64,000 nt of DNA, taken from a virus. The stretch lies in IMG/VR virus record IMGVR_UViG_3300015371_000021, positions 8,190-72,189 of that record; one strand, given 5' to 3'. The notes beneath the pieces were generated by a model, which did not search any database, had not been told where the DNA came from, and saw only the letters and a program-made list of their open reading frames with translations. The position numbers were made by a program, and so were the translations under genes. This document shows positions 1 to 64,000 of this stretch, piece after piece; positions within the stretch are counted from its first letter, which is position 1, and every line of letters begins with the position of its first letter.

Positions 1-526
1 GGCCGCCGGCAAACAGGACCATAGACGTCCAACCAGGATAATGCACCGACAGATCAGGTCGCGCCCAGATGCCCACGCCGTAGCGTGCAGCACACTCCTT
101 TGCGGTCGCGCATATCCCCGAATGCAACTCAGCATCGAGCGCGCGGCTCTCCCGTGGCCATAGATTATATGGATGCGCGATAATCAGAGTGTTCTTGAAC
201 GAACTCGGGCCGCGCGCGCCAAGCTGCCGATAGTGCTTCCAATGGTCCAACAGATCATGGTGATTGCCGGCAATGAACTCGCGATAGTATCCGCGCCTCA
301 CATAAAGGCCGCGCCCAGTTTCCCGCCACTCACCACCGAGAATGCGCGGCAGCATCTCTCGCGCATAGCAATTGCGGACACACTTCTCACTCTCGAGGTT
401 AGCCTCGCATGCCTCACGATAAGCGCGGCGCGATACAGGGTCCGTAGGATGGGGCGCCGCCTGCAGCGCCTTAAAAGCCACCTCGCGACGCTCCATCGCG
501 CCGTCGAGGGCGGAGTATTGCGTCAC
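1..526 (-). CDS. Phage hypothetical protein (3'-partial, runs off window)
   Basis: Hand-translated open frame from GTG at 526 (GTGA overlap with upstream stop): MTQYSALDG...LLDHWKHYR...IIAHPY...SVHYPGWTSMVLF. Not in the ORF track because it has no stop. Confidence 0.7.
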   Translation of the reverse strand, partial: MTQYSALDGAMERREVAFKALQAAPHPTDPVSRRAYREACEANLESEKCVRNCYAREMLPRILGGEWRETGRGLYVRRGYYREFIAGNHHDLLDHWKHYRQLGARGPSSFKNTLIIAHPYNLWPRESRALDAELHSGICATAKECAARYGVGIWARPDLSVHYPGWTSMVLFAGG

Positions 527-747
527 CGCGCTCTAGCCGTATGCAGGAGTACATACCGCGCCCAACGCTTGTCGGGGCTTTTTTCCCAATGCGTGATGAT
601 GTGGTGCCCAGCCTTACGCAGTTCATAAATCCGCGCGGCTAGGCGAAAGCAGTCAAAGCGACGCAGTGCAAGTTGCGGAGTGATTGCCCGCCCTTCCTGT
701 AACGCGGCGAGAATCCTGCGGTTTTGTGAGTCGGTGGCAGCACTCAT
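523..747 (-). CDS. Small helix-turn-helix protein (HTH_39-like)
   Basis: ILAALQEGRAITPQLALRRFDCFRLAARIYELRKAGH is typical of phage winged-HTH proteins. Confidence 0.8.
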   Translation of the reverse strand: MSAATDSQNRRILAALQEGRAITPQLALRRFDCFRLAARIYELRKAGHHIITHWEKSPDKRWARYVLLHTARAR

Positions 748-950
748 CGCACAACACGCTCCGGCATCGGCGTCACCTTCGGATGATCGGTCGCGATCTG
801 TGCCGGCTCGTCATCTTCGTTCACCGCCTTGCGAAACGTCTTGAGTCCGTGGCCGAAATCGGCCATCAGCTTGCTGACCTTGTTGCCACCGAACAGCAAC
901 AGCACGACAGCCAGCACGATCGCCCAGTGTGCGAGAGACATCGCGCCCAT
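744..950 (-). CDS. tatA: Twin-arginine translocase subunit TatA/E
   Basis: MGAMSLAHWAIVLAVVLLLFGGNKVSKLMADFGHGLKTFRKAVNED shows the N-terminal TM helix with HW, the FG hinge, and the amphipathic helix with conserved G and F of alphaproteobacterial TatA. Confidence 0.92.
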   Translation of the reverse strand: MGAMSLAHWAIVLAVVLLLFGGNKVSKLMADFGHGLKTFRKAVNEDDEPAQIATDHPKVTPMPERVVR

Positions 951-1072
951 CACTCAGCTCCCAAAGCACAGAGTATAAGGACAACGGTACCAACTAGCCC
1001 AAGGCCGGACACCAGCCCGACAAAAGCGTCACCCGTTACCTGCCACACGGCCAGGATGGCGTTGGTGCCCAT
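950..1072 (-). CDS. Small hydrophobic peptide (40 aa)
   Basis: Hand-translated MGTNAILAVWQVTGDAFVGLVSGLGLVGTVVLILCALGAE; its TGA overlaps the tatA ATG (TGATG). Confidence 0.5.
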   Translation of the reverse strand: MGTNAILAVWQVTGDAFVGLVSGLGLVGTVVLILCALGAE

Positions 1073-1088
1073 TGGATCGCTCCCAGGC

Positions 1089-1472
1089 TCACATGCCCAT
1101 GGCTTTTTTGAGCAATATCAAAAGTGCCCGCTGCTGGTCATCCGTCAGGTTGTCCGCGTTCAAGGTGCGCGGCTCCTCGTGAATCACATCCGGTTTGCCG
1201 ACGCCTCTATCCATGACAGCTTGCGCTGCCATGAGGCCAACACGCGTGTCAGAGTCCTCCATCAGCTCCACCAAGCGCGCAGCGGCGCGCGGCGAGGCTT
1301 CCCGGCAGATTCTCTGGCACTCCAGATAAGCCCCTGATTTTCCTGAAGGATTTCCGCGCTGGCCCTTTTTCCACGGAGGCGCAATACGACCACCATGCGG
1401 CTGCGGCAGCAGTTCCCTTCCGCTAGCCGAATTTCCGGTAGCCGATCCGCTTGATGTAGCGGTTTCGCTCAT
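1089..1472 (-). CDS. Terminase small subunit-like protein (DUF5681-type)
   Basis: PWKKGQRGNPSG motif, followed by helical AAARLVELM...AAQAVMDRGVGKP. Confidence 0.7.
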   Translation of the reverse strand: MSETATSSGSATGNSASGRELLPQPHGGRIAPPWKKGQRGNPSGKSGAYLECQRICREASPRAAARLVELMEDSDTRVGLMAAQAVMDRGVGKPDVIHEEPRTLNADNLTDDQQRALLILLKKAMGM

Positions 1473-1535
1473 TTCCCGCACTTACCACGACTTACAAGAA
1501 TTCCGCTACCTCACGAACACGTGATACACAGAACA

Positions 1536-1576
1536 GGGATATTTCCCTTGACTGTCTCGCTGTTCCTGACTATCTC
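1536..1576 (+). promoter_or_regulatory. Operator palindrome GGGATATTTCCC abutting a sigma70-like promoter
   Basis: GGGATATTTCCC (1536-1547), then TTGACT (1548-1553), then CTATCT/TATCTC 16-17 bp downstream. Confidence 0.6.
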
Positions 1577-1703
1577 AGATGCGAGACAGAACCCAACACC
1601 GAGGCTAAGGGAATACAGCAAGAGGCGAAGCGGCGGAACAGTCGATAGTGCTCTTGGGGAAGTCCCGAGTTGGTTGAAAAGCCTCAGAAGAACGGAGGGA
1701 ACA

Positions 1704-2012
1704 ATGAATAAGCCATACATCGAACAGGACTGCACCATCACACACGAAGGCAAGTCCTACACTTCTGGTGGAGCAGCTGTCACAGCAGATTACATCATCG
1801 CCTATCCGCTGAAGAATGGTGTCCTTGGAGACTGGCACGGTCGACCAATCGGCACATGGCGATCAGTTTCGACATGGCGCGTCAATTCGTGGATCAGCAG
1901 CCACATGCACCAAATCGAGGCCATCGTTAACAGTGTAACTTATACAGGACGCGGCTTCGGCGAAGGCATGGTCTATCGCGGCAAGCGCAAGGTATCGCGC
2001 TACGGCGGCTAA
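1704..2012 (+). CDS. Phage hypothetical protein
   Basis: ATG at 1704 preceded by GGAGGG; MNKPYIEQDCTITHEG... Confidence 0.7.
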   Translation: MNKPYIEQDCTITHEGKSYTSGGAAVTADYIIAYPLKNGVLGDWHGRPIGTWRSVSTWRVNSWISSHMHQIEAIVNSVTYTGRGFGEGMVYRGKRKVSRYGG

Positions 2013-2022
2013 CCCAGACACC

Positions 2023-2043
2023 GGGCAGCGTGGGGCGCTGCCC
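2023..2043 (+). terminator. GC hairpin (possible terminator or processing site)
   Basis: GGGCAGCG-TGGGG-CGCTGCCC just after the stop at 2012; no U-tract. Confidence 0.35.
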
Positions 2044-2095
2044 TAGCCTGGAGTAGCCGAAGCTAGCAGGAACGAAAATAACCGGGGACAAACCA

Positions 2096-2323
2096 ATGAA
2101 CGACAACGACCTTCGCTATGAAACTCAGCCCTCCGAACTCGACATCCGCGTGATGGGCATGCTGATCGACACCTACTCGGTGCCGCAGCTGTTAGAGCTC
2201 GTCGTGGACCACTGCGCGGAACGCGCAGACCGCGCGAAAGCGGCGGGATGCAGCGCCAAAGCCGCAGTATGGAACCGCTACGTTAACCGAATCGAGGCGG
2301 CAATCACCACGATTGCCGCGTAA
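2096..2323 (+). CDS. Hypothetical protein
   Basis: 75-aa ORF with purine-rich RBS. Confidence 0.65.
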   Translation: MNDNDLRYETQPSELDIRVMGMLIDTYSVPQLLELVVDHCAERADRAKAAGCSAKAAVWNRYVNRIEAAITTIAA

Positions 2324-2340
2324 GCAACGGAGACGGAGGA

Positions 2341-2544
2341 ATGAAACGCGCGGCGCTAATGGCGCTCCTATGCCTCGCTTTGGGCGGCTGCGTTGACCGG
2401 CACGCCCAATTCCAGGACGCGAACGGGCACTGGGTCGGGGGCTGCAGCGCCACCGGCTGGGGGATCATCGGGGCGATCGTCGCGGCCTCGAACTACAACA
2501 CGTGCATGGAGCGGGCGCAGGAGAAAGGTCTGCGACCGATCTAG
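2341..2544 (+). CDS. Small lipoprotein
   Basis: Signal peptide with lipobox (LALGG-C), GGAGGA RBS, and two more Cys. Confidence 0.75.
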   Translation: MKRAALMALLCLALGGCVDRHAQFQDANGHWVGGCSATGWGIIGAIVAASNYNTCMERAQEKGLRPI

Positions 2545-2563
2545 CTCGAGCAAGGAGGAAACA

Positions 2564-2881
2564 ATGACAGAAGAACCACACTGGCGCATCCGCCGGACGG
2601 CGGCGGGCTTTGTCGAACTACGCGACGAAGACTTCCTTGGCCGCGAGTGGCGGCGGCAATTCTGGGTGCCGCAGGAGGGTGGCGTCATCCGGGAGAGCAA
2701 TGACGGGCGATGGGGATACGACCACGAGGTGTGCGAGTTGCTGGCCCACGGCGGGAGGCCGCTGCAGGCGACGCAGTCCACCCTACTGGACGTAATCCGC
2801 CGCGAATACCGCCGTGCCGTCGCCCAGGAGCGCCGCCAGGGCGTTCTGGACTACAAGGGCACCCTACCCACCGGCCCATAG
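2564..2881 (+). CDS. Hypothetical protein
   Basis: AAGGAGG RBS before ATG 2564 (MTEEPHWRIRR...). Confidence 0.7.
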   Translation: MTEEPHWRIRRTAAGFVELRDEDFLGREWRRQFWVPQEGGVIRESNDGRWGYDHEVCELLAHGGRPLQATQSTLLDVIRREYRRAVAQERRQGVLDYKGTLPTGP

Positions 2882-2892
2882 CTCCGCCGCCA

Positions 2893-3069
2893 ATGTGGAG
2901 GCTTCTCCGGCCCGTTACGGCCAGCGCGCTCCTCTGGGGCGCGTTGCTGTTATGGGTGCTGGCGTGCTTCGGGATACTGGTGGCGCTGTATTTTGCCGAG
3001 AAGCAGCTGGGGAGCGATCTGCACTACGGCATGATCCCGATACGTTCAGGGGCCGAAGGCAGGGGGTAG
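2893..3069 (+). CDS. Small membrane protein
   Basis: MWRLLRPVTASALLWGALLLWVLACFGILVALYF: single TM segment. Confidence 0.5.
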   Translation: MWRLLRPVTASALLWGALLLWVLACFGILVALYFAEKQLGSDLHYGMIPIRSGAEGRG

Positions 3070-3188
3070 GTTTGGCCCCCACTCGCCTCTACCGCCCCGA
3101 TCCACAGCAGCAGGGCCAGGATCAGCACGAGTAGCACGATTAGGCCATAGGCCAGGACGCGGAACAAAGCGGCCGGGTCGAATGGCAT
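3024..3188 (-). CDS. Small membrane protein (54 aa)
   Basis: Hand-translated MPFDPAALFRVLAYGLIVLLVLILALLLWIGAVEASGG... Confidence 0.5.
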   Translation of the reverse strand: MPFDPAALFRVLAYGLIVLLVLILALLLWIGAVEASGGQTYPLPSAPERIGIMP

Positions 3189-3199
3189 TTACGGAATGC

Positions 3200-3472
3200 C
3201 GCGGACAAAAGGATTTTGTGTATACAAAACGGGGGTTCGTTGCATTTTAGTTCGTTTCATTTATCCCGTTCCCGGGGTGAACGGGTAAATGAAACGGGGA
3301 ACTTTTGCAAGTAGAAAATAAGGCCTTCTGTTTCGCCTGTTTCAGGCTGTTTCAAAACAGCCGAAACAGGCAGATTTCCGCCATTTTTTAGGGTGTAGGG
3401 GTCGCTGTTTCAGCGGTTTTTGTTTCAGCCTAATCTTCGGGGCGCTGTTTCAGCTCGATTTTGCCTGTTTCG
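3200..3472. repeat. AT-rich region with (C)TGTTTC iterons; putative replication origin
   Basis: CTGTTTC at 3328, 3337, 3347, 3405, 3445 and 3465; TGTTTC at 3421; inverted GAAACAG at 3363. Lies at the 3' end of the primase-helicase gene. Confidence 0.65.
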
Positions 3473-5274
3473 GTCAGCAGGTATTTGCCGCGAAACACCC
3501 GCACCAGCCTGTCAGTCGTCAGCTGCTGCAGGTGCCGGCGCACCTTGGAAAAATTGGGAATGCCGGCGTCATTGACCCAGCCGGCCTCTCTGGCCAGCTC
3601 CCGAAGCGAGATATCGGGACGCTGATTGAGCCAATAGAGCACCGCGTTCTCATCCGCGCGGGTTTGTTTGGCCGCATGTGCCGCGGCTTCAGAGCTGATC
3701 GGCTCAGCGACAACAGTCATAAAGGGCCGGCCATGTTTGTCGAGAAGCCCAGTCGGCACGGGTCGCAGGTCGTAGGTAAGCGGCGCAAAATCAGGACCGC
3801 GGATTTTCCCCTGCCAGTGCATTTCGGTTTTTTCGCGGGCGTCACTCGCCCACAAGGTGAGGTTGGCGTCCATCTCATTGAGAAAGCCGCCACCACCACG
3901 GGGTAAGAGGTTGTCTGCCGCCGCCCGCTTGATCGGATGACACAGTGGGATAACCGCGGGGTGGCCGGTGCATTCTGCGATGAACCGACGGAACGAACGG
4001 CCATAGGCACCCGCCTGCACGTTGTCGTTTTCATCGTCGCCGGGATAGAACGCTGCAGCGGTATCGCCAATAATCGCCGTAATCGGCACGCCTAGGGCGT
4101 TGATTTCCGCAATCAGCGCGTCAATCTCGCTGTCGCTTAAGGGAAACGAGTGCGGCATCACGTAGGGCATATCTTCGGCACGTAGGCTGAATGCCTGCGC
4201 CATTCCGACCATCCGCGCCTTGAGGTCTTCGGGGTTCTCGCCGGCCAGGTAGACGACGAAGCCTTTCGTCACTTCCATGTTCACAATCGGCCGGCCGGCC
4301 TGGATCATGCACGCATTGTAGAGCCACACCGCGGTTTTGCCGTGACCGGTATTGGAGGTGCAGGAATAAAGCCTGCTGCGCTGCACAATGCCATCGATCA
4401 GCCAGTCGGGGACGACGAGGCTCGACATGAACGTGGCACCCGTGACGATGCGGCTAGGGGGTGGGGCGGCGGGGCCTACTTCAGGCTGGGCTTCCGCCAG
4501 CTCGCGCAATTCCTCGACGTCATGGCCGGCGTCCAGCCAGTCAGACACGTCACCCTTTGGGGGCAGATCGGGCAGCAGCAGGACGCGCACCGAGGCGGCG
4601 GTGCCACGCAAGGCGTTGGCCACTTGGGCCGCGTGCTTTGCGCCGGGTGCGTCATTATCCTGCAGCACCACCACGGGCTTGCCGGCGAAGTGGGACGCGT
4701 AGTCAGCCCGCCACTTTTCCGCGCCACCGATATTGGTGGTGGCGATCAGTCCCTCGCCATGCAGACGATCGGCGTCCTTTTCCCCTTCGCATATCCAGAC
4801 GGTTTCCGCCCCGGAGTGAATCAGGCCAGGTAGGCGATAGAGCAGCCGGTCGTGGTTTGGGATATGGGCCACCGACCAACGGCCATCTGGGGCGCGCTGA
4901 CGAAAGCGCGGGCTGCCGGACAGCGTGCGAACCACCTGGAGGACCAGGCTTCCGTCCGCGTCGCGGTAATCGTAGAGGCGGGCGATGTCCTGCTCGTGGG
5001 GGAGGCGGGGGCCATGGCCATTAGTGCGCGGACGCGCATCGTTAGCGGGCGGTGGCACCCGGCGCGCCAGCATGTGGAGGTCGCGGTAGCCGCCGCCCTC
5101 GTTGGTCTCATTGTCAAACCAGACGTTCTTGTCCGTTCGGACGGATTTGCTTTCTTTCGCGCCGAACCGGAGTTCGTTGGGCGCGCGTCTGGTGGGCTGA
5201 CCCCATAGCTCGATCGCCAGTTCGACAATTGACGGCCACGATGGGTCAGGCGTGTAGCCGCTCATCGTGCGCAC
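3430..5274 (-). CDS. DNA primase-helicase (TOPRIM + AAA_25/RecA-like + C-terminal HTH)
   Basis: TOPRIM WICEGEKDAD...QDNDAPG...KGDVSDW; Walker A SNTGHGKT; Walker B IIGDT. Confidence 0.9.
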   Translation of the reverse strand: MRTMSGYTPDPSWPSIVELAIELWGQPTRRAPNELRFGAKESKSVRTDKNVWFDNETNEGGGYRDLHMLARRVPPPANDARPRTNGHGPRLPHEQDIARLYDYRDADGSLVLQVVRTLSGSPRFRQRAPDGRWSVAHIPNHDRLLYRLPGLIHSGAETVWICEGEKDADRLHGEGLIATTNIGGAEKWRADYASHFAGKPVVVLQDNDAPGAKHAAQVANALRGTAASVRVLLLPDLPPKGDVSDWLDAGHDVEELRELAEAQPEVGPAAPPPSRIVTGATFMSSLVVPDWLIDGIVQRSRLYSCTSNTGHGKTAVWLYNACMIQAGRPIVNMEVTKGFVVYLAGENPEDLKARMVGMAQAFSLRAEDMPYVMPHSFPLSDSEIDALIAEINALGVPITAIIGDTAAAFYPGDDENDNVQAGAYGRSFRRFIAECTGHPAVIPLCHPIKRAAADNLLPRGGGGFLNEMDANLTLWASDAREKTEMHWQGKIRGPDFAPLTYDLRPVPTGLLDKHGRPFMTVVAEPISSEAAAHAAKQTRADENAVLYWLNQRPDISLRELAREAGWVNDAGIPNFSKVRRHLQQLTTDRLVRVFRGKYLLTETGKIELKQRPED

Positions 5275-13487: not shown

Positions 13488-13682
13488 ATGTGGCCGCGCT
13501 GGATGCAGAAGTCTTTCCTGCTGACCGCGGGGGCGTTGTATCTCTCGTTATGGGTGTTCTGGTGGTGGGTGATGGTAATCCTGTCACTCATCGCCTTCCC
13601 AATCGTTCTCCTTTGCGCGGTGCAGGACGTGCGTCGCCAGCTGGAGGACGAGGCACGACGGGGGGTCAGGGGGCCGGGCTAG
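13488..13682 (+). CDS. Small membrane protein
   Basis: Long hydrophobic stretch; last rightward gene before the convergent late operon. Confidence 0.5.
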   Translation: MWPRWMQKSFLLTAGALYLSLWVFWWWVMVILSLIAFPIVLLCAVQDVRRQLEDEARRGVRGPG

Positions 13683-13897
13683 GGCTTAGGCGGCGGCGTG
13701 GTCTTAGCGGTGTTGTCATCGGGGATCAGGTGGCCGAGCACGTAGACGATTAGTGCCACTATTGCATCCACCTTAGGGTCTCCGGTCACCACGTTGCTGA
13801 GCCCAGCTGACAGAGCGGTGCCCACGATGGTCAGCGCATGGATAGTGGTCGGCTGGCGCGCCCACGCAGAGAAGGTTTCCCCGCCGAATATTTTCAT
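13679..13897 (-). CDS. Putative holin
   Basis: 72 aa, two TM segments, WARQPTT motif, at the end of the late operon. Confidence 0.55.
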   Translation of the reverse strand: MKIFGGETFSAWARQPTTIHALTIVGTALSAGLSNVVTGDPKVDAIVALIVYVLGHLIPDDNTAKTTPPPKP

Positions 13898-13898
13898 C

Positions 13899-14345
13899 TC
13901 AGTGTTCCTTGCCGTTGCTATAGCGGCTCTGATCGAGAAGCCGTCCGGTCATTTCCATGTGCTTTTGGGTGAGCGCTTGTAGGTCGACCACCAGCTTTGC
14001 AGTGCCGGCGCTTTCTCTTTCCAATCCCGCCAAGCGCTGTTGGAAGTTCAGCATTACCTCGCGCTGCGCCGTGTATCCGGTTTCCACCGCACCGACCCGG
14101 CGATCGAGGTTGACCACCTGTTCGTCCTGACGCGCATTGATCAGGCTGCCGCGTTCGATTGCCGTATAGACCCGGTCGTTCAGCACGGTGAGGTGCTGTT
14201 CGATGGCGCGAATAGCGGCGGTGTCGACCTCGACTTCCCGCTTCATTTGGCCGACGAAGTAGATCGCGCCTCCGAGCGTGGAGATGATCGAGACGAGAAA
14301 TATGAGGTCTCGCCGCAACGTGGAAGGAGGACCGACACCGCTCAC
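13899..14345 (-). CDS. Membrane-anchored coiled-coil protein (lysis module?)
   Basis: N-terminal TM segment followed by heptad repeats. Confidence 0.6.
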   Translation of the reverse strand: MSGVGPPSTLRRDLIFLVSIISTLGGAIYFVGQMKREVEVDTAAIRAIEQHLTVLNDRVYTAIERGSLINARQDEQVVNLDRRVGAVETGYTAQREVMLNFQQRLAGLERESAGTAKLVVDLQALTQKHMEMTGRLLDQSRYSNGKEH

Positions 14346-14362
14346 GCTCGTTGCTCATGCTC

Positions 14363-14605
14363 CTATTTTATGGGGGGAGGCGGCGCGGCGTTTTTGGCTT
14401 GCAGCTCAGCAAGCTGGCGCTGATCAGACGCAACCTGTGCACGCAGGCGGCTGATCAGGCTGAGTAGCTCGGCGCCGGTGTTGTTGCAGGCGGTGATTTC
14501 GTCCTGCGGAGTCGCGCCGCCACTTTGTGCTGGCTGGGCCTGGACAGCGAAGGGGAGTAGTGCTGTCAAGGCAACGATTACTGTCAGCGAAGCGAGTTTT
14601 GCCAC
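14363..14605 (-). CDS. Small exported coiled-coil protein
   Basis: LTVIVALTALLPFAVQA-Q signal peptide; start uncertain. Confidence 0.55.
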   Translation of the reverse strand: MAKLASLTVIVALTALLPFAVQAQPAQSGGATPQDEITACNNTGAELLSLISRLRAQVASDQRQLAELQAKNAAPPPPIK

Positions 14606-16518
14606 GGAATACCTCTGGTTGTGTTCAGTCCGAAAATGAGCATAGGACGGCCTGGCGTTGCAACCCTTGGTGTAAACAGCAGCTGCTGCCACCAGGACCA
14701 TTGGCCGGATTTGACGCTGTTGTCGGCGTTCAGCGTGCCGTTCGGGTTGGAGCCCGGGCGGTTGCCCCAGACGAACCAGTTGGTCGACATCGGCTGATTA
14801 CGGCCGGGGAAGGCTGGCCCACCCGAGGCGACGCCGTTGGCGTAGGAGACGAAGGTGGCCATAAAGTTCGAGTCGTTCGGCAGGTTGCCGTTCGAGCCAT
14901 CGCAGGAGCAGCCAACCTCAGAGATGAACACCGGCGCGGTGCCGGCGATCTCCAGATAACCGAAGAAGGTGTTCCAGGCGGAGATGGCTGACGCGCCGTT
15001 GTCTGGGGTGACGCCCCACACGTTGCTGGGATAGAGGTCGACCGAATAGGCCACCTTGTTTGCTGGCGGTCCGTTGGTGACCCCGCCAACCGGAGACTGC
15101 GCGACCCCGGTGAGGTCCATCAGCCCCGCGCCACTATTCAGCGGCTGGCCGTTGAGCAGGGTGGAGGTGCGGTTAACCGGCCCCGGCACGATCATGATGA
15201 TGTTCGGGTTGACCGCGAAAACCAGGTTGCCGAGTTCCTGTGCAATACACATCCAGTCGGTATCGCCTGAGCCACAGTTCCAGCAAATGCCGGGATTGAC
15301 CCCGCCGCCTGGCTTGGCTTGGCCGGTAAATGAGCCGGTCACCAGCGGCCGGTGGTGGATTTGGTAGGCAATCACAGTTGGTTCGATAGTGTACCGCTGC
15401 ATTAGGGCGACGGTGTTGTTTTCCCACTGTACCAGCGTAACGTTGGACCCATTGCCGCAGCCGTCGTCGTTGCCGCTGGAGCCGCCGCTGTCATAGGGCA
15501 GGCCGTTAGCTTGCACCGACCAACACGGGCTGGCGGGCGAAGCAGGCAGCTCATTACCCTGATGTGAGAGGATGACCTTGAGGCCTGCGGCCTTGGCGTT
15601 CGCGACGCAGGCGTCGATCTGAGCGAAGGTATTGCAGCCGGTTGCCGGTAGCGTGCCGCCCGAGGATGGTCCGTTGGCCGGCGGCGCGGCGACAGGACCA
15701 CTGTAGGTCTGGGTATTGGGGTCGAAAATGTGCCAGGTGCTGTCGCGAGCGTCGGAGATGTAAACTGTGGTCTGGTTGTAGTAGGCCATTTGGAGAGCGT
15801 TGTGACCGATGTCGCTGAAGTTGCCGAGGCTGACTTCCGCGCCACCAGCCGGGGTCCAAAACGCGTTCAGCTCGGTATCCAGTCGGTAACTGTCCCCGGT
15901 GACCGTGGTGAAGCTCTGACCACCGTTGATAAAGATTGTCGCGATGCCAGGAGTCGAGCCGCCGCTTGGCGGACCAGTGGCAGGTGGGGCGGCGACAGGA
16001 CCGCCGACGCTAGGGCCGACTGGGTTGAAGATATGCCACGTGCTGTCGCGGATATCTTGGATGTAGACGGTCGTGTTGTTGTAGTACGCCATCGCGAAGG
16101 AGTTGAAACCGATATCGCTGATTGAGCCGATCGATTGCTCGCTGCCGCCAGAGGGCGTCCAGAACGCGTTGCCTTCGGTGTCCAGGCGATAGGAATTGCC
16201 CTGCACGTCGTTGAATGACTGGCCGGGGCCGATAAAGGTGGTGGGGATGCCAGGGCCGCCGGTGCCGGCGTTGAGCGCCATGTCGCGCCAAGGAATGACG
16301 ACGCAGTTGAACTGCCCGGTGCTGCGGATTGCCGCCATAGTGCCGTCGTTCGGCGAGCCCAAGAACTGGGTGCATGCCAGCCGCTGCTGATTGCCGGCGC
16401 TATCGATAAACTGGTTGCCGTTGGTCGACAGGAACCCGCTGGCGAGCGGCGAGCCGGTGATCTGCGCCCACGCGGGCTGCGCCACCAGCAGCAGTAGGAA
16501 GGCGAGGAACCGGATCAT
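14584..16518 (-). CDS. Secreted GH5 (cellulase-like) fold protein with duplicated insert and degenerate active site
   Basis: Signal peptide (AWA-Q); FLSTNGNQFIDSAG, AKAAGLKVILSH and APVFISEVG are GH5 landmarks; the NEP position reads HRP. Confidence 0.8.
   Translation of the reverse strand: MIRFLAFLLLLVAQPAWAQITGSPLASGFLSTNGNQFIDSAGNQQRLACTQFLGSPNDGTMAAIRSTGQFNCVVIPWRDMALNAGTGGPGIPTTFIGPGQSFNDVQGNSYRLDTEGNAFWTPSGGSEQSIGSISDIGFNSFAMAYYNNTTVYIQDIRDSTWHIFNPVGPSVGGPVAAPPATGPPSGGSTPGIATIFINGGQSFTTVTGDSYRLDTELNAFWTPAGGAEVSLGNFSDIGHNALQMAYYNQTTVYISDARDSTWHIFDPNTQTYSGPVAAPPANGPSSGGTLPATGCNTFAQIDACVANAKAAGLKVILSHQGNELPASPASPCWSVQANGLPYDSGGSSGNDDGCGNGSNVTLVQWENNTVALMQRYTIEPTVIAYQIHHRPLVTGSFTGQAKPGGGVNPGICWNCGSGDTDWMCIAQELGNLVFAVNPNIIMIVPGPVNRTSTLLNGQPLNSGAGLMDLTGVAQSPVGGVTNGPPANKVAYSVDLYPSNVWGVTPDNGASAISAWNTFFGYLEIAGTAPVFISEVGCSCDGSNGNLPNDSNFMATFVSYANGVASGGPAFPGRNQPMSTNWFVWGNRPGSNPNGTLNADNSVKSGQWSWWQQLLFTPRVATPGRPMLIFGLNTTRGIPWQNSLR
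15650..16255 (-). repeat. Tandem duplication of a ~101-aa module inside the GH5 barrel
   Basis: PGI..FI..GQSF..V.G.SYRLDTE.NAFWTP.GG.E...SDIG.N...MAYYN.TTVYI.D.RDSTWHIF.P occurs twice. Confidence 0.9.
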
Positions 16519-18300
16519 TCACACCGGCCGCCGGTAGTTTACTTGAATCGCGGTCGATGCTGGGGTGCCGGTGACGCCAGAAATCACCATCGTCACGTGC
16601 TGGCCGCTGTTGACGGTATTGGCCGCGCTGCAAGTGGACGTCGTGCGGCTTGCGGCTGAGACGACGATGGCGTTGCAGCCGGTTACCGGCGTACCGTTGA
16701 TCTGAATCGACACGGTAAAGGTGCCACCCGTTGTGTAATAGGTGATGGTGTCGATCGTGCCGGCGCCCCAGGGCCATGTGTCGATGACCGGGATCGTGTC
16801 ATTGCTGACAGCAACCGTCGCGCCCCACCAGGCGGTGAGGGTGCTGGTCGTGTTGCCGATGGTCAGCACAGCAGCGCCTGACAAAGCGAGCGGCGCGGTC
16901 GCGGTCAGCGTGCCGCCCGAGGCGCCGGCCAGGCAGGTCGGGCAGGTAAAGTTGCCGGTGCCGTTATTGTAGACCAGCGGTGCGGTGGCGCTGAATCCGG
17001 TGAGTGACGCGTATGGCCCTTGGGTAAAGCCATTGAACCGGCCGAACAGCCCCTGCGTGGTGCACCAGATCATGCCGTTGGTGGGAGATGTCGGCGCGGT
17101 GCCTTGCGGGCAGATCAGGTTGGCGCCAACGCCAGTCGAGGCCGCTGTGGTTAATGTGCCGGAGAAGGTGGCAGCGGCGATCGTGGCGGTGCCGCTGATG
17201 ACTGGATTGGTCAGTGTTGCTGTGGGAATGGTCAATGCTGTTGGCAGCGTGGTGGCGAACGCTGGCAGAGAGGCGCCATTGCTGACCAGCACGGCGTTGG
17301 GGAGTTGCCCCAGGCACGTTACCGACGTGCCGGACGCCGCGTAGTAAGCCAGCGCTGGCGCACTGCCGCAGTTGCCGACTGTGCCGCCGCCGCCTGACCC
17401 GCCGCCGGGAGGTGCGCCGCCGTCGATCGCCGTGCCGTTTGCCGAGGTGACGATGGCGTTGCCAGGAACGAAGGTACCGGTTGCGGTGAGCAGGCGCGGG
17501 CCGTTGCCTTGACCGTTGACGGTGCCGCCGAGCGCCACAACTTGGCCGGCGACGTTGATCTGCAGGTTGGACGGATTGGACAACTGCACCCAGGTGCCGG
17601 CGTTGTTGCGATAGCTGAAGCATCCAGTACCGGCGCCGGCACCTTCCGAGCCGTTGCGGCAATCGCTGGTCCAGACCCACAGGCTGGCGGCGCCCGAGCC
17701 GGGCAGCGCACCGATCGTGGTGGACAAGAATGACACCGGCCCGCCGAACGACGTGGTGGCGCCGTTATTGGCGATCTGGAAGGTCGGGCCTGTGCTGGTG
17801 ATCGAGGGCGCGGTGATTGCGCCGGTGACGCCAAGGGTTGAGCTTAGCGTGGTGGCGCCCGAGACGCCGAGCGTGCCGGTGATCGTGGTGTTGCCGGACG
17901 CTAGAGTCCCGACCAGCGTGGTGTTGCCGGTGACGCGGAGCGAGGACAGCGTGGTGAGGCCGGCGGGGATGTTCACCGGCGAGCTGAATGTGGTGACACC
18001 GGTGACGGAGAGGCTGCCGCCGATGATGGTATTGCCGGAGGCCGTGATGGTTGAGGCGACGACTGGGAAGCCCGAGCCGACCAGCGTGCCGAGGGTGAAC
18101 TTGACCGACTGGTTCGATCGCGTCGGGCCGACCGCCTGCTGGCCGAGCACAATGTCGTTGATCTGCGGATTGACCCCTTCCGCCTGGCAGGCGGTGGAAT
18201 TCGGCACCGTGGTGAGGCAGGCGGGCTGCGAGCGGGCGCTGGCGATCGACGCCAGGATCAGGGCTAGGGTGATGAAGAGGGCAGAGAGGTAGCGTCGCAT
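16519..18300 (-). CDS. Fibre-like G/T-rich protein with signal peptide
   Basis: MRRYLSALFITLALILASIASA leader; L.VTG.TT repeats and APTSPTNGMIW motif as in tail fibres; many paired Cys. Confidence 0.75.
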   Translation of the reverse strand: MRRYLSALFITLALILASIASARSQPACLTTVPNSTACQAEGVNPQINDIVLGQQAVGPTRSNQSVKFTLGTLVGSGFPVVASTITASGNTIIGGSLSVTGVTTFSSPVNIPAGLTTLSSLRVTGNTTLVGTLASGNTTITGTLGVSGATTLSSTLGVTGAITAPSITSTGPTFQIANNGATTSFGGPVSFLSTTIGALPGSGAASLWVWTSDCRNGSEGAGAGTGCFSYRNNAGTWVQLSNPSNLQINVAGQVVALGGTVNGQGNGPRLLTATGTFVPGNAIVTSANGTAIDGGAPPGGGSGGGGTVGNCGSAPALAYYAASGTSVTCLGQLPNAVLVSNGASLPAFATTLPTALTIPTATLTNPVISGTATIAAATFSGTLTTAASTGVGANLICPQGTAPTSPTNGMIWCTTQGLFGRFNGFTQGPYASLTGFSATAPLVYNNGTGNFTCPTCLAGASGGTLTATAPLALSGAAVLTIGNTTSTLTAWWGATVAVSNDTIPVIDTWPWGAGTIDTITYYTTGGTFTVSIQINGTPVTGCNAIVVSAASRTTSTCSAANTVNSGQHVTMVISGVTGTPASTAIQVNYRRPV

Positions 18301-39735: not shown

Positions 39736-39933
39736 TCAACGCGCCCGCCAGCCGATTGTCGTCGGACGCACCTGACTGCCGATGTTGAACCCCTGAGTGA
39801 ATGCGTCGCGCTTAAACCCGCCAGCCGCACCTCCGCCGGCACCGATCGCGCCCTCTGACCGCCGCGCGCGCCAGGGCAGCAGAAACGCCAACAAAAGTGC
39901 GCCTAGCGAACGGCGACTAAGTAACGCTCTCAT
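39736..39933 (-). CDS. Small protein with twin-arginine-like leader
   Basis: MRALLSRRSLGALLLAFLLP; ATGA-coupled to the upstream gene. Confidence 0.55.
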   Translation of the reverse strand: MRALLSRRSLGALLLAFLLPWRARRSEGAIGAGGGAAGGFKRDAFTQGFNIGSQVRPTTIGWRAR

Positions 39934-57769: not shown

Positions 57770-59478
57770 ACACCGTATTGCTCGGCGATCGTCAGCTGCC
57801 GTCCGTGCCACACCTTGCGCCGGGCTTCCTCGCGATCGACTTCCTCCGCCAGCCGGATTAGCCCTGAGCGCCGCAGATACCCGAGCGCCCCCGATACCGT
57901 ATCGGTCAGGTCCTTCCACCGCCCCTTGGGAAACGCTGACGCCTCGGCGATCACCATCTCCGCCCATGTCGTGTCTGGCGCGTAGACCATGCCGTTCTCG
58001 AACAACACCGAAACCGCCCGTAGCCGCGCCACCTTGTCGCCGCGCACATCATCCAGCGCGATCGAGCACTCACCCGGCTCCATCAGGCGCAACAACTCCT
58101 GCTTGGCCCACTCGCCACCCGCCTTGTTCTCGATTACCACGACGTCCAACTGCCGCCGCCGCACGGTCTCCAGCATCTTCAGCGCCAGCCCGCGCAGGGT
58201 CGGGCGGTCGCGCCAGGCGCCAGTCATGGCGATCTTCGGCCGGTTCATGCTGTCGGCAAACACCCCCCAGGTGGTCATCGCGCACCAGGCGTTTTCCTTG
58301 TCATCCTGCGCAGAGAGCGCGGTATCGACGTAGCCGATCTGGTATTCCCACGCCGGCCACGCGGTCACGTAGGCCAGCCGGCCGTCCTCGCTCTTCGCCG
58401 GCCGCAGCCACTTCTCCTCTTCGTCATCCGGCGGCCAGCGCTGCCACCATTCGCTGCGTATGATACCGCCGCCACGTGGCGCCGGACGCTGCTGAAACTG
58501 CGCCGCCCAGGCGAACTCGCCCACCTGTTTCTGCTGCTTACCGCACCAGTCACTGTCAAACCGTACCGGCCATAGCGGCTCACCATCGTCGCGACGCCAG
58601 TCGGCGAACTTGTAACGGGTGCGCCCAAGCTCCTCACCCCAGGCGTTAATCCACCGCCCGCCGGACGCCGTCACGCAGCGCCGGTCAGCCTCGAACTCGC
58701 AGGGTAGGCAGAGGTGCACGATCTCGCCTCCCTCATTGTCCAACAAGAAACCCGCCAGGTCCGCCTCGCCCAGCCGCTGCATGATGATCACTTCGGCGCC
58801 CTGCGACGGGTCGTTCGATCGGGTGCGCCACACCTCATTGTAAGCTCTGACCTGGCTTTCGATTACCGCCTGGCTTTCCACCTGATCGGTCTTGTGCGGA
58901 TCATCCACAATGCGAATCAGCCCACCCTTACCCAGGCTTTCGGGGATACCAGTGCTGATGCGCGAACCACCCGCCTCGGTGTCGTACTGCCCAGCATTAT
59001 CGCGGTCGCCGCGGATGCGGCAGTGATCGCCCCAGCGATCCTGCCACCAGTTCGAGCCGATCAGACGGCGCGCAGTAACTGCATCCTCTTCGGCCTTCTT
59101 CGCGCCATAGCTCGCACACAGAAACCGCACCCCAGGCCCAACCAGCGGATTGTCTGGGTCGCGCTGCCGCGCCCAGGTCCAGGTCGGCCAGGCGATCGAC
59201 ACCGCACTCGTCTTACACATTCGCGGCGGGATGTTGATGATCAGCCGCCTAATTTCGCCGCGGCTGACCGCCTCCAGATGCTCGCAGATCGCCTCCAGAT
59301 GCTTCGAGCCACAAAACTCCGCTGGATCGAATTGCGGCCAGGCGCGCTGCAGATACGTGTAAAGCGAGGCTTCGCATTCACGCCGATCGCGCTCCAGATC
59401 GGCCCACTCTAAAGCGTCGATGGTCACCATCGGCGGAAGACCGATGTTTTCCAAAAAGTCTGCTAGCTCAGGAATCAT
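57766..59478 (-). CDS. terL: Terminase large subunit
   Basis: RRLIINIPPRMCKT (Walker A), IVDDPH (Walker B), IMQRL, QFQQRP, DTA, IENKAGG, DKVAR, FPKG..KDLTD. Confidence 0.95.
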   Translation of the reverse strand: MIPELADFLENIGLPPMVTIDALEWADLERDRRECEASLYTYLQRAWPQFDPAEFCGSKHLEAICEHLEAVSRGEIRRLIINIPPRMCKTSAVSIAWPTWTWARQRDPDNPLVGPGVRFLCASYGAKKAEEDAVTARRLIGSNWWQDRWGDHCRIRGDRDNAGQYDTEAGGSRISTGIPESLGKGGLIRIVDDPHKTDQVESQAVIESQVRAYNEVWRTRSNDPSQGAEVIIMQRLGEADLAGFLLDNEGGEIVHLCLPCEFEADRRCVTASGGRWINAWGEELGRTRYKFADWRRDDGEPLWPVRFDSDWCGKQQKQVGEFAWAAQFQQRPAPRGGGIIRSEWWQRWPPDDEEEKWLRPAKSEDGRLAYVTAWPAWEYQIGYVDTALSAQDDKENAWCAMTTWGVFADSMNRPKIAMTGAWRDRPTLRGLALKMLETVRRRQLDVVVIENKAGGEWAKQELLRLMEPGECSIALDDVRGDKVARLRAVSVLFENGMVYAPDTTWAEMVIAEASAFPKGRWKDLTDTVSGALGYLRRSGLIRLAEEVDREEARRKVWHGRQLTIAEQYGV

Positions 59479-60668
59479 CCAGTTAGGTTCTTTGAGCCGT
59501 CTTTCTGCCAAACATCGACCGAGTAGATTTGCAGCGGGTTTTTGCCTCCCGTTCCTAGGATCAACCGTGAATGCTGAATATCGATCACCGACATCCACGG
59601 GCATTGCGATGTATTTGGTGTGCTACCCCCTTTGTAGATATCCCACGTGTAGGTGGCACCGACCTGCTGCCGATCGAAGAAATTCTTAATGTAGCCCTTC
59701 GTGTTATTCGTCGCCGGCACCCACAGCCAGCCGTATTTGTGTCGCTGGCCCATGTTCGTGCCGGCCGGCAGATTACATTTGACGTTGACCCCCATATTGG
59801 CGTCGTTGAAGTCCTGACCGCCATACCAGTGATGTACCGCCGCGGCATACATCAGGTTTGAGTGGTCCATAAACTCGGACGCATCATACTCCAGGTTCTG
59901 ATTGTTGTTTAGCTGCGGCAGACCGTTATAACCGACGCTTTCAGCCGCATTCATCCACCACGCCGGCCAACCGGAATTGTCGTTTCCCCAGCCGGACGGC
60001 GGCGCATTCTCAATCAGCATGTCGACTTCAAAATACCCGCCGCCACCAAACGCGATGCCGGCAAAGCGACCATTGTCGCCGCCGTGATCGGTGCGCATGT
60101 GATCGTTGGCCGCATAGTTGCCATCGCCAGTAATGCGCACCCCGTAGCTGGTCTGCGTCACTCCCGAATGCGATATGAACCAGTTCTGCCCCAACGTCAC
60201 CGCTGGGCCAAAGGTACGCGTGTTGTAACCGACCGCGGCGGCCATCGACGGCGCGCCACTCGGCGGTGGTGCCGGTGGTGGCGCGACACCGGTCGGATCA
60301 GGACACGCCACCCAGTCGTCATCGCTATCGACCGGCCCGTCCTTCGGCGCATTCCACCAGTTCTTGTGCGCATTCTGCTGATAACATAAGCCACCTTTGG
60401 CGTAGAGCCGTTCGACCAGCGCGCCAGTGACCTTGCCGTCGCAATCGATCTTATAGCTACCCGCCGCCCCGACTAAACGGAACGTCCGATGCCGGCTATC
60501 TACCAGCGTCCCCGACGGATTGGTCACCTGCGTGCCGTCCGGCGATGGTGTCGCCGGCGGCGGTGGAGATGGGGGAGGTGGTGGCGCACCGTCAGCCACC
60601 ACAGTGCCACGCAACGTTTGTCCTGTGTTCAACGTGACGACGACGGTTCCAGTCAATGTTCCCGACAT
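59475..60668 (-). CDS. GH16-like protein with poly-Pro linkers and small accessory domain
   Basis: GGYFE...WPAWW...EYDASE...HKYGWLW; ExDxxE intact. Confidence 0.8.
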   Translation of the reverse strand: MSGTLTGTVVVTLNTGQTLRGTVVADGAPPPPPSPPPPATPSPDGTQVTNPSGTLVDSRHRTFRLVGAAGSYKIDCDGKVTGALVERLYAKGGLCYQQNAHKNWWNAPKDGPVDSDDDWVACPDPTGVAPPPAPPPSGAPSMAAAVGYNTRTFGPAVTLGQNWFISHSGVTQTSYGVRITGDGNYAANDHMRTDHGGDNGRFAGIAFGGGGYFEVDMLIENAPPSGWGNDNSGWPAWWMNAAESVGYNGLPQLNNNQNLEYDASEFMDHSNLMYAAAVHHWYGGQDFNDANMGVNVKCNLPAGTNMGQRHKYGWLWVPATNNTKGYIKNFFDRQQVGATYTWDIYKGGSTPNTSQCPWMSVIDIQHSRLILGTGGKNPLQIYSVDVWQKDGSKNLTG

Positions 60669-60679
60669 GAGTGTTCCCC

Positions 60680-63600
60680 TTATGGCGGCAGCGGTACGCC
60701 CACCCGAATGTTCGAGGCATCATTGCGCTGCCATACGGTGATTGTATATACAGTCAGCGCATTACCAGCGTTCGCCCCTATCAGCAGACGGCAATGCTGT
60801 AGATCGAAAATCGAAAACGGCGGACATCCGGCTTGTCCCGGCACCGTGCCGCCGCCATAGCGGTCCCAGGTATGCGTTCTCCCCACCTCGACGTTGTCAT
60901 AGAACAGCTTGGAATAGCCCTGAGTCGTCGCCGTCGCCGGCACCCACAACAGGCCGTACTTATGGCGCGCTCCAAATGTATTACTCCCTGGATTAGGCAC
61001 CGTAAGATTACCGTTCGGGAAACCGGCGGTCAGATCACTATAGTTGCCACCAGTGTACCAGTGGATAGGTCCGGTCGAAAACACGCTGTTCGACACCACC
61101 AGAAACTCAGCCATGTCGTATTCAAGATTCTGATTATTGGACAAGCTGGCGAGATTGTTATAGCCGACACTCTCCGCAGCATTCAGCCACCACGCTGGCC
61201 AACCAGGTCCGCCCTTACCAGACTCCGGCGGTGGATTGGCCATTGAAAAGTCAGCCTCAAAATACGCCCCGCCACCAAACGCCACGCCGCCGATATTACC
61301 ATTCGGCAACATATGATCACTCGCGATGTTCTCGTTGAAGTGATACACGTCCTGCGACAAGAATACTGAACCATCGCTGTTTTGACTCGCCGTCTGCTGC
61401 GACACGAACCAATTAGTACCCAATGTGATAGCCGGCCCATGTGTGCGCATGGTGTAGCCCACCGCAACCGCCTGCGGCGGTGCGCCACTCGACGGCGGGG
61501 GTGGCGGAGGCGTGGGCGGCGGTGCTGTCCCCAGATTCCCAGTCAAGATGACCACAGTTTCCGACGGCACTGAGATCGTCGCGAGCGAGGTCTGATTGCT
61601 GTTCGCCGGCACCGGTGAAGTAGGCGCGCCCGACGACGATTTACCAATCTCCCAGCGCGCCACCGTGCCAGAGAACCCCACACCACTTTGCGCCAGATTG
61701 ACCGTGCGATTGGTCGTCAGATTGTAGTTCACCAGCATGATCGCGCCAGTGTTCGTCGTCGGCTTCACCGCCACGATCGCCATGTCGGGGAACGTCGTCG
61801 ACGACGTAAACTCAGGCCCAAACACCGACTGGCCGGCCTTGCCAAGCACATAACCAAACGCACTGACCGCACTATTCGAGCCGCCCTGCGCAGGATTACC
61901 GACCGCCCCGATCACCCCCATGTTGTTGATGTTCTCAAGCGCCCCCACCTCGAACCCGGTGGTACCCTTAAAACATCCGAGCAAATACAAAGCGGCAAAC
62001 ACCCCGCCCATGTAATGCCCAGTCTCATTGGCGAACTCGCTCATATTCCAGTCGATGACACCCAGCGGAACGTTCGCCAACGGCGTCCCCACCAAAGCGT
62101 TGCGCTGCGTTGCCGACTTGCCAGAGTTGTAACCCTTCGGACCATAAGCAGTGGTCAAACTGTCGGCTATCGGCACGCCGACCGGCCCGTTAACCGGATT
62201 AACCGGAAAGTCCATCCACGGCACGCCGACATTAGGTGCCCGACCCGATCCAACCGCAGACGCGAAAGAGCTGTTAGCACCGAACCCCGGATTCCACTGC
62301 GCCGGTCCCCAAATCCGATAATTCGGATTGACCGCCTTGAGCGCATCGAAAATCGTATTGAAATAAGTATTGACCGTGCCCTGCGACTGGCCCTCGCCAT
62401 TACCGAGGCCACCGTCATCCATCCAGATCGAACCGATGGCAAAGTCCATAAACATCGCGCCGTAGCCATTATTATTCAGCCACGTCGCAAGGGTAGCGGC
62501 GCGTGATGCCAGCGTGCTCGCACTGCCGTCACCGATCTTATTGGCCACCCCCATGATTCCACGCACGCCAGGCTGCGAGAACCCGGCAATGAACGGCACC
62601 AGGTTGTTGATGTCGGTCATATCCCCAGCCGCAACCTTACGATCAAGCGCCCAATCTGAGTTGATCGAGATCAACGCCGGCTTAAGGAAGTTGTTTACCG
62701 TGGTGCGGAAAGTCGCGTTGGCAAAGTTCTGGCCAAAGATCGACGAACGAAAACCCCAGATCGTCTTTTGCAGCGTCTTGCCCGTACCCGTCGACCAGTC
62801 AACCGAGGCGTTCGCCCCAGGCGGCGGCGGGGGTGGGGTCGGAGGCGGCCCTGCCGGTGGGGGCGATGGCGGCGGTGGGGCAGGCCCCGTTCCGACAAAA
62901 AACACGTTCGAGGTCGCAGTAATCGCTGTGCGTGCCGCATCACGCACACTCACCACATACTGCCCCGCCGCCTGCGGTGGAGGCGGAGCAGGTGGAGGCG
63001 GCACCGGTACCGGCGGAGGCGGCGTCGGCGGAGGCGGCGTCGGTGGAGGCGGTGTCGGTGGTGGAGGTGTCGGTGGCGGCGGAGGCGAGCCGGGCGTAAA
63101 CGGCAGCACCGTATCAACGGTGCACTTATACAGATGCGCGTAGGCCGGCAAGCTAGACGGATTGGCGTTCGAGCTAAGCGGTCCATACCCCGTCTGACAC
63201 GCCGTCTTGTGATAAAATGGCCCCGCCCCCTGGAATTCACCACCAGGATTAGGAAAATCAACCACCAACGCTCGGTCGCGATAAAACTGCACACGCGACG
63301 ACGTCCAATTTACTCCCAACGTATGAATCTGTCGCGCATCATATCCGTCGTTCGACGTGATCTCGAAAGTCGCGCCGTTACCGGTGCACCCCTGCAGAGT
63401 GTGCTGCACCCCGGAACTGTCGGTCCAAATATAAAATAGAAATGCTTGCCACGATCGTCCTGCCGTCGGCGTCGTCAGTATCTGCACTTCCCAGATCAGC
63501 CCAGGCACCCGGTCGACCGCGACGGTAAACTCCCAATAGCCGTACTGCTGGGTAAAATTGCTCGGCGCGTTGAAGGTATCGATCAGACCCGACAGGAATT

Positions 63601-63826: not shown

Positions 63827-64000
63827 TCACGGCGGCAGCGCCACGCCAACGCGGATGTTCCTGCTGTCGTCCCGCTGCCATACAGAGAAGGAATGCAGAG
63901 TAAAGGCATTTACGTTGGAGGTCCCCCACATAATTCGGCAGTGCTGCAGATCGATAATCGATCCAGGAGAGTTGTTCGCCTGACCCGGCGTGCTGCCGCC
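63827..64000 (-). CDS. Third GH16-like paralog (5'-partial)
   Basis: Hand-translated GGSTPGQANNSPGSIIDLQHCRIMWGT...SVWQRDDSRNIRVGVALPP matches the C-terminus of 60680-63796. Confidence 0.85.
   Translation of the reverse strand, partial: GGSTPGQANNSPGSIIDLQHCRIMWGTSNVNAFTLHSFSVWQRDDSRNIRVGVALPP

Follow-up and report, generated by a model that had tools for sequence, protein, structure and literature searches.

Why would a phage carry a gene for one component of a protein exporter? The question is raised by a small open reading frame (ORF) of the viral record IMGVR_UViG_3300015371_000021 (IMG/VR; 72,189 bp), of which we analysed positions 8190-72189, a stretch of 64,000 nucleotides called the window below. 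The ORF, at window positions 744..953 on the reverse strand, resembles TatA from the Tat (twin-arginine translocation) system and, judged by curated family profiles, its product is a TatA/TatE-family protein, TatA rather than TatB. It scored 38.4 bits against a cut-off of 21 with Pfam PF02416 (TatA_B_E; E 7.3e-10) and 57.5 bits against a cut-off of 53.9 with NCBIfam TIGR01411 (tatAE). The best NCBIfam models were all TatA/TatE, and no TatB model matched at E 0.1. Its sole PHROG match was phrog_29532 (E 1.6e-6), an unannotated family of 'unknown function' already held in PHROGs. The protein falls in no described holin family, and its neighbours, a winged helix-turn-helix (HTH) protein, an orphan peptide and a DUF5681-like protein, include no endolysin by PHROG and Pfam searches.

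An earlier, sequence-only reading of this locus had described an intact TatA with an HW transmembrane helix (TMH), an FG hinge and an amphipathic helix, and all of these elements are indeed present. Polar H8 is followed by a TMH from W9 to F20, a hydrophobic stretch of 12 residues, by the hinge F20-G21, by an amphipathic helix at about residues 23-44 that contains F39 and K41, by an acidic patch (E45-D46-D47-E48) and by a variable tail. The hydrophobic moment over residues 22-45 is 0.48-0.53, a value reached by 245 of 5000 shuffles. One article names as functional features of TatA a polar residue that hydrogen-bonds TatC, a TMH of only 12 hydrophobic residues with Phe as the last, a hinge Gly that is strictly conserved, an amphipathic helix and an acidic patch, followed by a tail that can be dispensed with (PMC9527704). 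A profile built from the phage and alphaproteobacterial TatAs aligned without gaps over residues 1-58 to the E. coli TatA structures 2MN7, 2MN6, 2LZS, 2LZR and 9E07 chain F (E 3e-13 to 5e-12), placing H8 opposite E. coli Q8, with F20-G21, F39, K41 and the acidic patch in register. Every invariant column of 25 aligned TatAs (H8, W9, VVLLLFG, M29, D31, G35, F39) is kept by the phage protein. It also keeps the three hallmarks of a census of 160 cellular TatA matches in 159 loci, a set chosen by likeness to the query and hence biased, in which H8 occurs in 159/160 and FG and F39 each occur in 160/160.

Does the gene truly belong to a phage? The record has direct terminal repeats with a repeat length of 123 bp and a CheckV completeness estimate of 100%. 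A 28.4-kb metagenome contig from an independent assembly is 99.98% identical and spans the repeat junction, and contigs of two further independent runs (2012 and 2016) show 0 differences in the operon sequence. On these two grounds a chimeric assembly and a host flank were ruled out. The record is a real, complete phage. The earlier reading had allowed that the flanks might prove to be host chromosome with tatBC; they consist of phage genes. The large terminase matches phrog_38 (E 2.7e-68), and portal, SU10-type adaptor, tail fibre, primase/helicase and DNA methylase genes were recognised by Pfam or PHROG matches, along with two giant internal proteins, one of which contains an SLT domain. The same genotype is present in runs of 11 rhizosphere/soil metagenome studies from 2012 to 2023; none of the runs listed is an RNA run. 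We suggest that the window phage is podovirus-like, lytic-looking and of soil/rhizosphere habitat.

The gene lies in a leftward operon with the following layout in window coordinates:

1482..1703, no strand: intergenic region between the leftward operon and rightward small genes, a presumed divergent control region from the ORF layout
1089..1481, reverse strand: p130, a 130-aa protein with a DUF5681-like motif (DUF5681 E 0.0098, sub-threshold), whose gene opens the leftward operon
950..1072, reverse strand: pep40, a 40-aa hydrophobic peptide with one predicted transmembrane segment (residues 17-35; Kyte-Doolittle window 2.46)
744..953, reverse strand: phage tatA, 69 aa if translation starts at the GTG (953) and 68 aa if it starts at the ATG (950)
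523..747, reverse strand: 74-aa winged-helix protein HTH_39 (PF14090, E 1.1e-17; phrog_4973, E 9.3e-19, unknown function)
2..526, reverse strand: gene downstream of the HTH gene, 175 aa within the window but 192 aa when read in the full record, with no Pfam or PHROG match

The gene order is thus p130-pep40-tatA-HTH, with tatA third. The stop codon TGA of pep40 and the ATG of tatA have one base in common (TGATG), and the 74-aa HTH_39 gene begins with an ATG that overlaps the tatA stop TGA (ATGA), bearing out the earlier description of a tatA translationally coupled between a hydrophobic peptide and an HTH gene. GGGAG precedes the ATG by 7 nt in both pep40 and tatA, and the entry P0001 of a public protein collection corresponds to the 68-aa ATG form of phage TatA. 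Among 1.84 billion representative proteins pep40 matched only itself, and it had no Pfam, PHROG or NCBIfam match; a complex prediction of TatA(1-52) with pep40 scored 0.01, uninformative either way. A consensus scan for promoters and terminators over window positions 1-3500 returned nothing above shuffles.

Relatives of phage TatA were found in three metagenomic proteins (P0002-P0004) that are 77-88% identical to it and come from contigs of 729-2021 bp. Changes are concentrated in the tail: core against tail, they number 0/46 v 8/22, 0/43 v 15/24 and 5/46 v 15/25 (Fisher p 4e-5 to 4e-9). A kept core with a drifting tail fits purifying selection on the functional part of the protein. The three copies are intact, and the decayed copies that the earlier reading had considered were not seen among them. 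Sequencing reads aligned to window positions 744-1072 showed no variants.

Where might the gene have come from? We compared it with the best 80 of 258 cellular relatives in reference genomes, which belong to Alphaproteobacteria or unclassified Proteobacteria, except for one metagenome-assembled genome titled Steroidobacteraceae and one titled only 'bacterium'. Identity to these 80 TatAs over the core ranges from 37 to 66% and is highest to Rhodospirillales-type proteins. In 74/80 of these cellular loci tatC lies within 5 kb of tatA (<=5 kb), and two of the other six loci are cut short; four of the 80 are orphan chromosomal tatA genes whose neighbours look housekeeping from their translations. 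No homologue of the phage tatA neighbours occurs in the 80 loci. By these comparisons the phage tatA is of an alphaproteobacterial kind, and all the cellular copies found differ from it considerably. A TatA tree of 53 rows and 60 columns (identical cores deduplicated from 90 to 54 rows, L058 left out) contained no well-supported branch; it gives only a weak hint of a Rhodospirillales-type origin, with the TatA-like protein of another viral contig, L178, as sister. Chromosomal alphaproteobacterial TatA, encoded in tatA-tatB-tatC-serS clusters (e.g. Bradyrhizobium), is of the same family, length and architecture as the phage protein, whereas the phage gene lacks tatB and tatC, has phage genes as neighbours and encodes A7 and A30.

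The lack of tatB and tatC in the window had been pointed out in the sequence-only reading, and it holds for the whole 72,189-bp record as well: a Pfam TatC search detected no tatC in either, and tblastn of the whole record with Bradyrhizobium TatB and TatC gave best E values of 0.15 and 0.85, that is, no homologue. Any partner of the phage TatA would have to be the host's. Proteins with a twin-arginine (RR) signal were sought by applying one explicit twin-arginine rule, with a reversed-sequence control, to all TatA-bearing records. An explicit rule was used because even canonical RR proteins, those of two of these records (L165 and L167, described below), match no family in Pfam and NCBIfam, Tat-signal families included. 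The rule returned two RR-signal ORFs in G004, two in G005, one each in G007 and G003, none in G006 and one in the window phage (G000); two records without TatA (G001 and G002) had none. The reversed-sequence controls gave 0 in all records except G000, which gave 1.

The ORF of the window phage that passed the uniform rule and the GH16-like proteins relevant to the cargo search are:

39736..39933, reverse strand: 65-aa ORF with SRRSLG and a hydrophobic N-terminus, the only window-phage ORF passing the uniform RR rule
59475-60668, reverse strand: GH16-like paralogue, 397 aa (ESM Atlas)
60680-63796, reverse strand: GH16-like paralogue, 1038 aa (ESM Atlas)
63827-64000, reverse strand, continuing outside the window (genome 1-1716): GH16-like paralogue, 588 aa (ESM Atlas)

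The three paralogues (397, 1038 and 588 aa) have in common a C-terminal domain of ~260 aa that is GH16-like (ESM Atlas feature score 0.95, TM 0.70-0.85). The 588-aa protein, which has an RRRR motif and a hydrophobic start (MLRRRRLLGG), was downgraded as a Tat cargo: its homologues lack a signal, and it failed the stricter rule. Its start, MLRRRRLLGGIGAGVFLGA, is lacking in its homologues, and P0006-P0009 and P0012 indeed start without a signal. A 593-aa protein (window 16519-18300, reverse strand) was likewise rejected; it has RR at residues 2-3, but its hydrophobic (h-) region is very hydrophobic and Sec-like. The start of this protein, MRRYLSALFITLALILASIASA/RSQ, looks like a cleavable Sec-like signal peptide, unusual at its location in the late region, between tail-spike-like and internal-virion-protein genes; a weak phrog_36281 match is its only family match.

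Is the window phage alone in carrying tatA? A single-protein scan of viral contigs with the window TatA found no relative, and relatives emerged only through profile-derived patterns: scans of IMG/VR with patterns from two TatA profiles returned seven other contigs. One of them, L164 (GC 0.73), which also encodes a TatA-like protein, was set aside as a probable prophage host flank, judged from the translations of neighbouring ORFs alone. The others represent five further, unrelated viral lineages with a TatA-like gene:

L163: TatA-like protein of 45 aa, between tail and neck genes, no adjacent RR protein
L165/L166 (same lineage): TatA-like protein of 50 aa, flanked by a 1284-aa protein and a P22-type coat, with an RR protein overlapping the TatA stop
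L167: TatA-like protein of 70 aa, in a replication module, with RR proteins on both sides (TSPSRRGFLG, APTRRGFIQG)
L178: TatA-like protein of 62 aa, in a RecT/exonuclease-like module as read from translations, no adjacent RR protein
L179: TatA-like protein of ~49 aa, in a replication module, with an RR protein just upstream, MVEFSRRGFLGG

The L163 protein passes the Pfam and NCBIfam cut-offs, that of L165 clears the Pfam cut-off but falls 0.8 bits short of that of TIGR01411, that of L167 lies just below both cut-offs, and L178 and L179 are tblastn assignments alone. TatC was found in 0/6 TatA-bearing viral records, two of which are at least 98% complete. An ORF with a canonical [ST]RRxF[LI] signal adjoins the TatA-like gene in three of the five other lineages (L165/L166, L167 and L179). 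The TatA and RR-protein pairs, partly overlapping, lie at L165:5995-6629, L179:3253-4150 and L167:5578-6562. In L165/L166 the RR protein is a 160-aa ORF starting with MVDISRRFFLGG. In the second RR ORF of L167 (L167:6203-6562) the C-terminal part matches the N-terminus of the L165 P22-type coat with 50% identity over 52 aligned positions (tblastn E 2.7e-10), as if a signal peptide had been joined to a coat-like fragment.

Despite genome GC contents of 0.38 and 0.58, L165 and L179 encode homologous cargos (42% identity, E 1e-22). Their family comprises 62 proteins of ~170 aa with no Pfam domain, and R6-R7 and the h-region are kept in 31/31 aligned members, drawn from the 62 plus L165. An AlphaFold2 model of the cargo family had a mean predicted local distance difference test (pLDDT) score of 63.9 and no PDB match at E <= 0.001; the family had no match in deposited phages and, in viral contigs, matched only its own contig. 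The TatA-like proteins themselves have common traits: all six phage lineages have exactly 12 residues from the polar His to the FG hinge, Trp7 is replaced by Ala, Ser or Thr in the window clade and in four of the five other lineages (L163, L165, L167 and L178), and Ala stands for the near-invariant Gly30 in the window clade and in L165. The B. subtilis phoD-tatAd-tatCd operon is a cargo-linked Tat operon. Like it, L165/L166, L167 and L179 have a TatA-like gene directly beside an RR cargo; unlike it, the phage cassettes lack TatC, and the window phage lacks an adjacent cargo.

What would this protein do for the phage? We give an even chance to the reading that phage TatA is a TatE-like spare protomer feeding the host's TatBC. 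This is proposed because the TatC-contact and hinge residues are retained, the gene is constrained and similar genes lie beside RR proteins elsewhere, and our confidence is kept at that level because no cargo above chance was found in the window phage. The gene would encode a TatA/TatE-type protomer that is functional and under selection. The phage would have acquired it from a host lineage within the Alphaproteobacteria and retained it, and would express it as the third gene of the tightly coupled leftward operon. We infer that the protein would insert in the inner membrane with its N-terminus out and its C-terminus in, that polar H8 and the short 12-residue helix would recruit it to the host TatBC receptor in the manner of E. 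coli TatE, and that the larger TatA pool for membrane-weakened passage would maintain or increase the export of folded proteins through Tat while the infection proceeds. The cargo to benefit might be one of the host's own Tat substrates, or else a phage protein whose signal is non-canonical.

Precedents for such an arrangement exist in cells, since E. coli TatE and B. subtilis TatAc are stand-alone TatA paralogues working with TatBC or TatC encoded elsewhere. The phage tatA resembles them in being small and unlinked to tatC, and it too would depend on a receptor encoded elsewhere, with the difference that this receptor would come from another genome, that of the host. Orthology to TatE is not claimed; the NCBIfam TatE model NF002960 scored 45.8 bits over residues 1-56, below its 92-bit cut-off. 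Compared with E. coli TatA, the phage protein has H8 for Q8 and A7 for W7, and its C-terminal tail is shorter (68 aa against 89 aa). A wider and more tentative proposal, which we regard as possible but somewhat doubtful, is that tailed phages possess a portable 'Tat booster' module: a TatA of 45-70 aa, usually without Trp7 and often in a two-gene cassette with an RR cargo, that moves between unrelated phages and pushes the phages' own folded proteins to the periplasm via host TatBC before lysis. The window protomer, co-translated with pep40, would then serve an unrecognised cargo, or would be re-used as a TatBC-dependent permeabilisation timer.

Several observations weigh against a role in Tat export. 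With one RR-signal ORF against one in its reversed control, the window phage has no Tat cargo above chance, and its best-looking candidate, the 588-aa GH16-like protein, is weakened by closest homologues that start without a signal. Two of the five other lineages, L163 and L178, have no RR protein next to their TatA-like gene. The phage clade has A7 where 157/160 cellular TatAs have W, and A30 where 159/160 have G, and these fixed W7A and G30A changes could reflect an altered function. Finally, the TatA tree has no well-supported branch that would point to a donor or a host.

How do other explanations fare against the spare-protomer reading? The lack of encoded TatB and TatC, and of an identified cargo, in the window phage would also suit the main rival, a TatBC-independent weakening of the membrane, in which clustered phage TatA, perhaps with pep40, would thin the inner membrane and leak protons for lysis timing (holin, antiholin or pinholin-like), host energy shut-down or superinfection exclusion. 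TatA is presented as the membrane-permeabilising Tat component, with clustered protomers that thin the membrane and transport linked to proton leakage, in PMC9527704, where the small holins TpeE/BhlA are said to have the same TMH and amphipathic helix architecture as TatA and membrane thinning is proposed as a principle common to both. These holins are nevertheless, according to the same source, sequence-unrelated to TatA, without an FG hinge and found in Firmicutes (PMC9527704), whereas the phage protein is a true TatA homologue with no holin PHROG match. Membrane weakening is also favoured by the translational coupling of tatA to the orphan hydrophobic pep40, by the replacement of the interfacial Trp7 with a small residue in the window clade and four of the five other lineages, and by the window phage having no recognisable holin or stand-alone endolysin in Pfam and PHROGs. 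We consider it unlikely, however, as the TatC-contact and reversible-hinge residues are all kept in a constrained core, tatA lies outside both putative lysis regions (window 13679-14701; genome 2001-4438), and other phages pair TatA with bona fide RR-signal proteins, pointing to real Tat transport.

Another reading is interference with host Tat: the phage protomer (W7A, G30A) would bind host TatBC or join TatA oligomers and poison the export of host substrates, e.g. envelope or respiratory proteins or a receptor-related factor. The phage clade has indeed fixed two substitutions at sites that hardly vary among its closest cellular TatAs, and Klebsiella tatC mutants gained fitness against three phages without Tat-signal proteins, as reported in PMC13412088. 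Both substitutions are conservative, though, with E. coli TatA having Ser at position 30 in the gap-free alignment; hydrophobic TMH positions of TatA tolerate Cys, according to PMC9527704; all known essential TatA positions are intact; and phages whose TatA gene adjoins an RR cargo of their own fit poorly with poisoning, which leaves interference very improbable. Similarly little probability attaches to a neutral passenger, in which case the phage would recently have acquired a host tatA through illegitimate recombination and would make no use of it. TatA is short and easily captured, the GC content at third codon positions of tatA (0.77) exceeds that of its four operon neighbours (0.59-0.66), and the only two distant relatives of the window phage found, one of them a 28% fragment, both lack tatA. 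Set against this, phage TatA is 34-63% diverged from the best 80 cellular TatAs, the gene is embedded in a phage operon by overlapping start and stop codons with its own Shine-Dalgarno sequence, the core is (nearly) unchanged in three diverged relatives while the tail drifts, the same genotype occurs in runs of 11 studies over 2012-2023, and five other phage lineages have a similar gene. Of the three functions that the sequence-only reading had offered, boosting or hijacking Tat export is thus favoured by the retained TatC-contact and hinge residues and by the RR neighbours elsewhere; poisoning and a holin-like action keep the low probabilities given above, because no cargo above chance was found in the window phage.

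The same reading had placed tatA in a 'TerS-like operon' (small terminase subunit), a label with weak support. The first gene product, p130, matches DUF5681 at 16.9 bits against a cut-off of 27.5 and has no PHROG match. Its residues 34-61, a 28-residue motif, are 57% identical to a 157-aa protein of G001/L168, another complete phage, in which that protein lies directly upstream of TerL (phrog_5989) and portal (phrog_146). Only the short motif and the position of this relative speak for the label. The phage's own terL lies ~13 kb downstream on the same strand, and a TerS-like p130 is possible but weakly supported. The interval between p130 and terL contains small ORFs without an assigned function and encodes a 2OG-Fe(II) oxygenase, a protein resembling pectate lyases and the three GH16-like paralogues.

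Two candidate lysis regions (window 13488-14701 and genome 2001-4438) were noted in the window phage, both picked out only by their small transmembrane and coiled-coil ORFs. One has a trio of 72-aa, 148-aa and 112-aa ORFs at window 13679-14701, and the other, outside the window in the first 8 kb of the record, combines a 68-aa protein with two transmembrane segments and a 201-aa phrog_3108 protein. Also outside the window, at genome 4505-4603 (L083:14540-14638), a 72-aa ORF contains a ~36-bp unit repeated directly and with overlap, at 92% identity over 63 bases, so that the peptide MWQDRWALRGTS recurs in its product.

Has a phage TatA been described before? Literature searches for phage-, virus- or viral-encoded TatA returned nothing relevant among the papers listed, with TATA-box papers only among the phrase matches listed. 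By a term search of its full text, a review on the evolution of Tat from 2026 brings in phages solely in connection with PhiX174 lysis, the phage-shock protein and T4 RI (PMC13673990). Tblastn searches of 50,697 deposited phage records matched seven records and no convincing phage tatA. Four of the seven are 'Acinetobacter phage MD-2021a' contigs annotated tatA, and the two examined contain tatABC next to genes of housekeeping type. Another two, annotated tatE, are contigs of a Salmonella chromosome, and the last, filed as 'Salmonella phage', has 1,849 bp without annotation and matches that same stretch of tatE. The INPHARED entries CAKLQH020000005.1 and CAKLQH020000024.1 (L173, L174) are bacterial chromosome contigs (tatABC, rdgB, ssu genes, phoX) and give false 'phage tatA' matches.

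The protein is thus an ordinary TatA, and its novelty is its phage home. Tat is regarded as a purely cellular or organellar machine, and a phage TatA departs from that view. An intact TatA without the rest of the exporter suggests that the phage adjusts host protein export during infection. If phages do supply TatA, its abundance would be a control point of export capacity worth hijacking, and folded proteins would be sent to the periplasm before lysis. The pairing of TatA with an RR cargo in one cassette makes the export idea directly testable, and the natural minimal variants (45-50 aa, Trp7 replaced) would be ready-made probes of TatA recruitment and membrane thinning. Should the booster-module proposal be true, phage TatA would be the first virus-encoded Tat component and would imply an unrecognised periplasmic stage before lysis.

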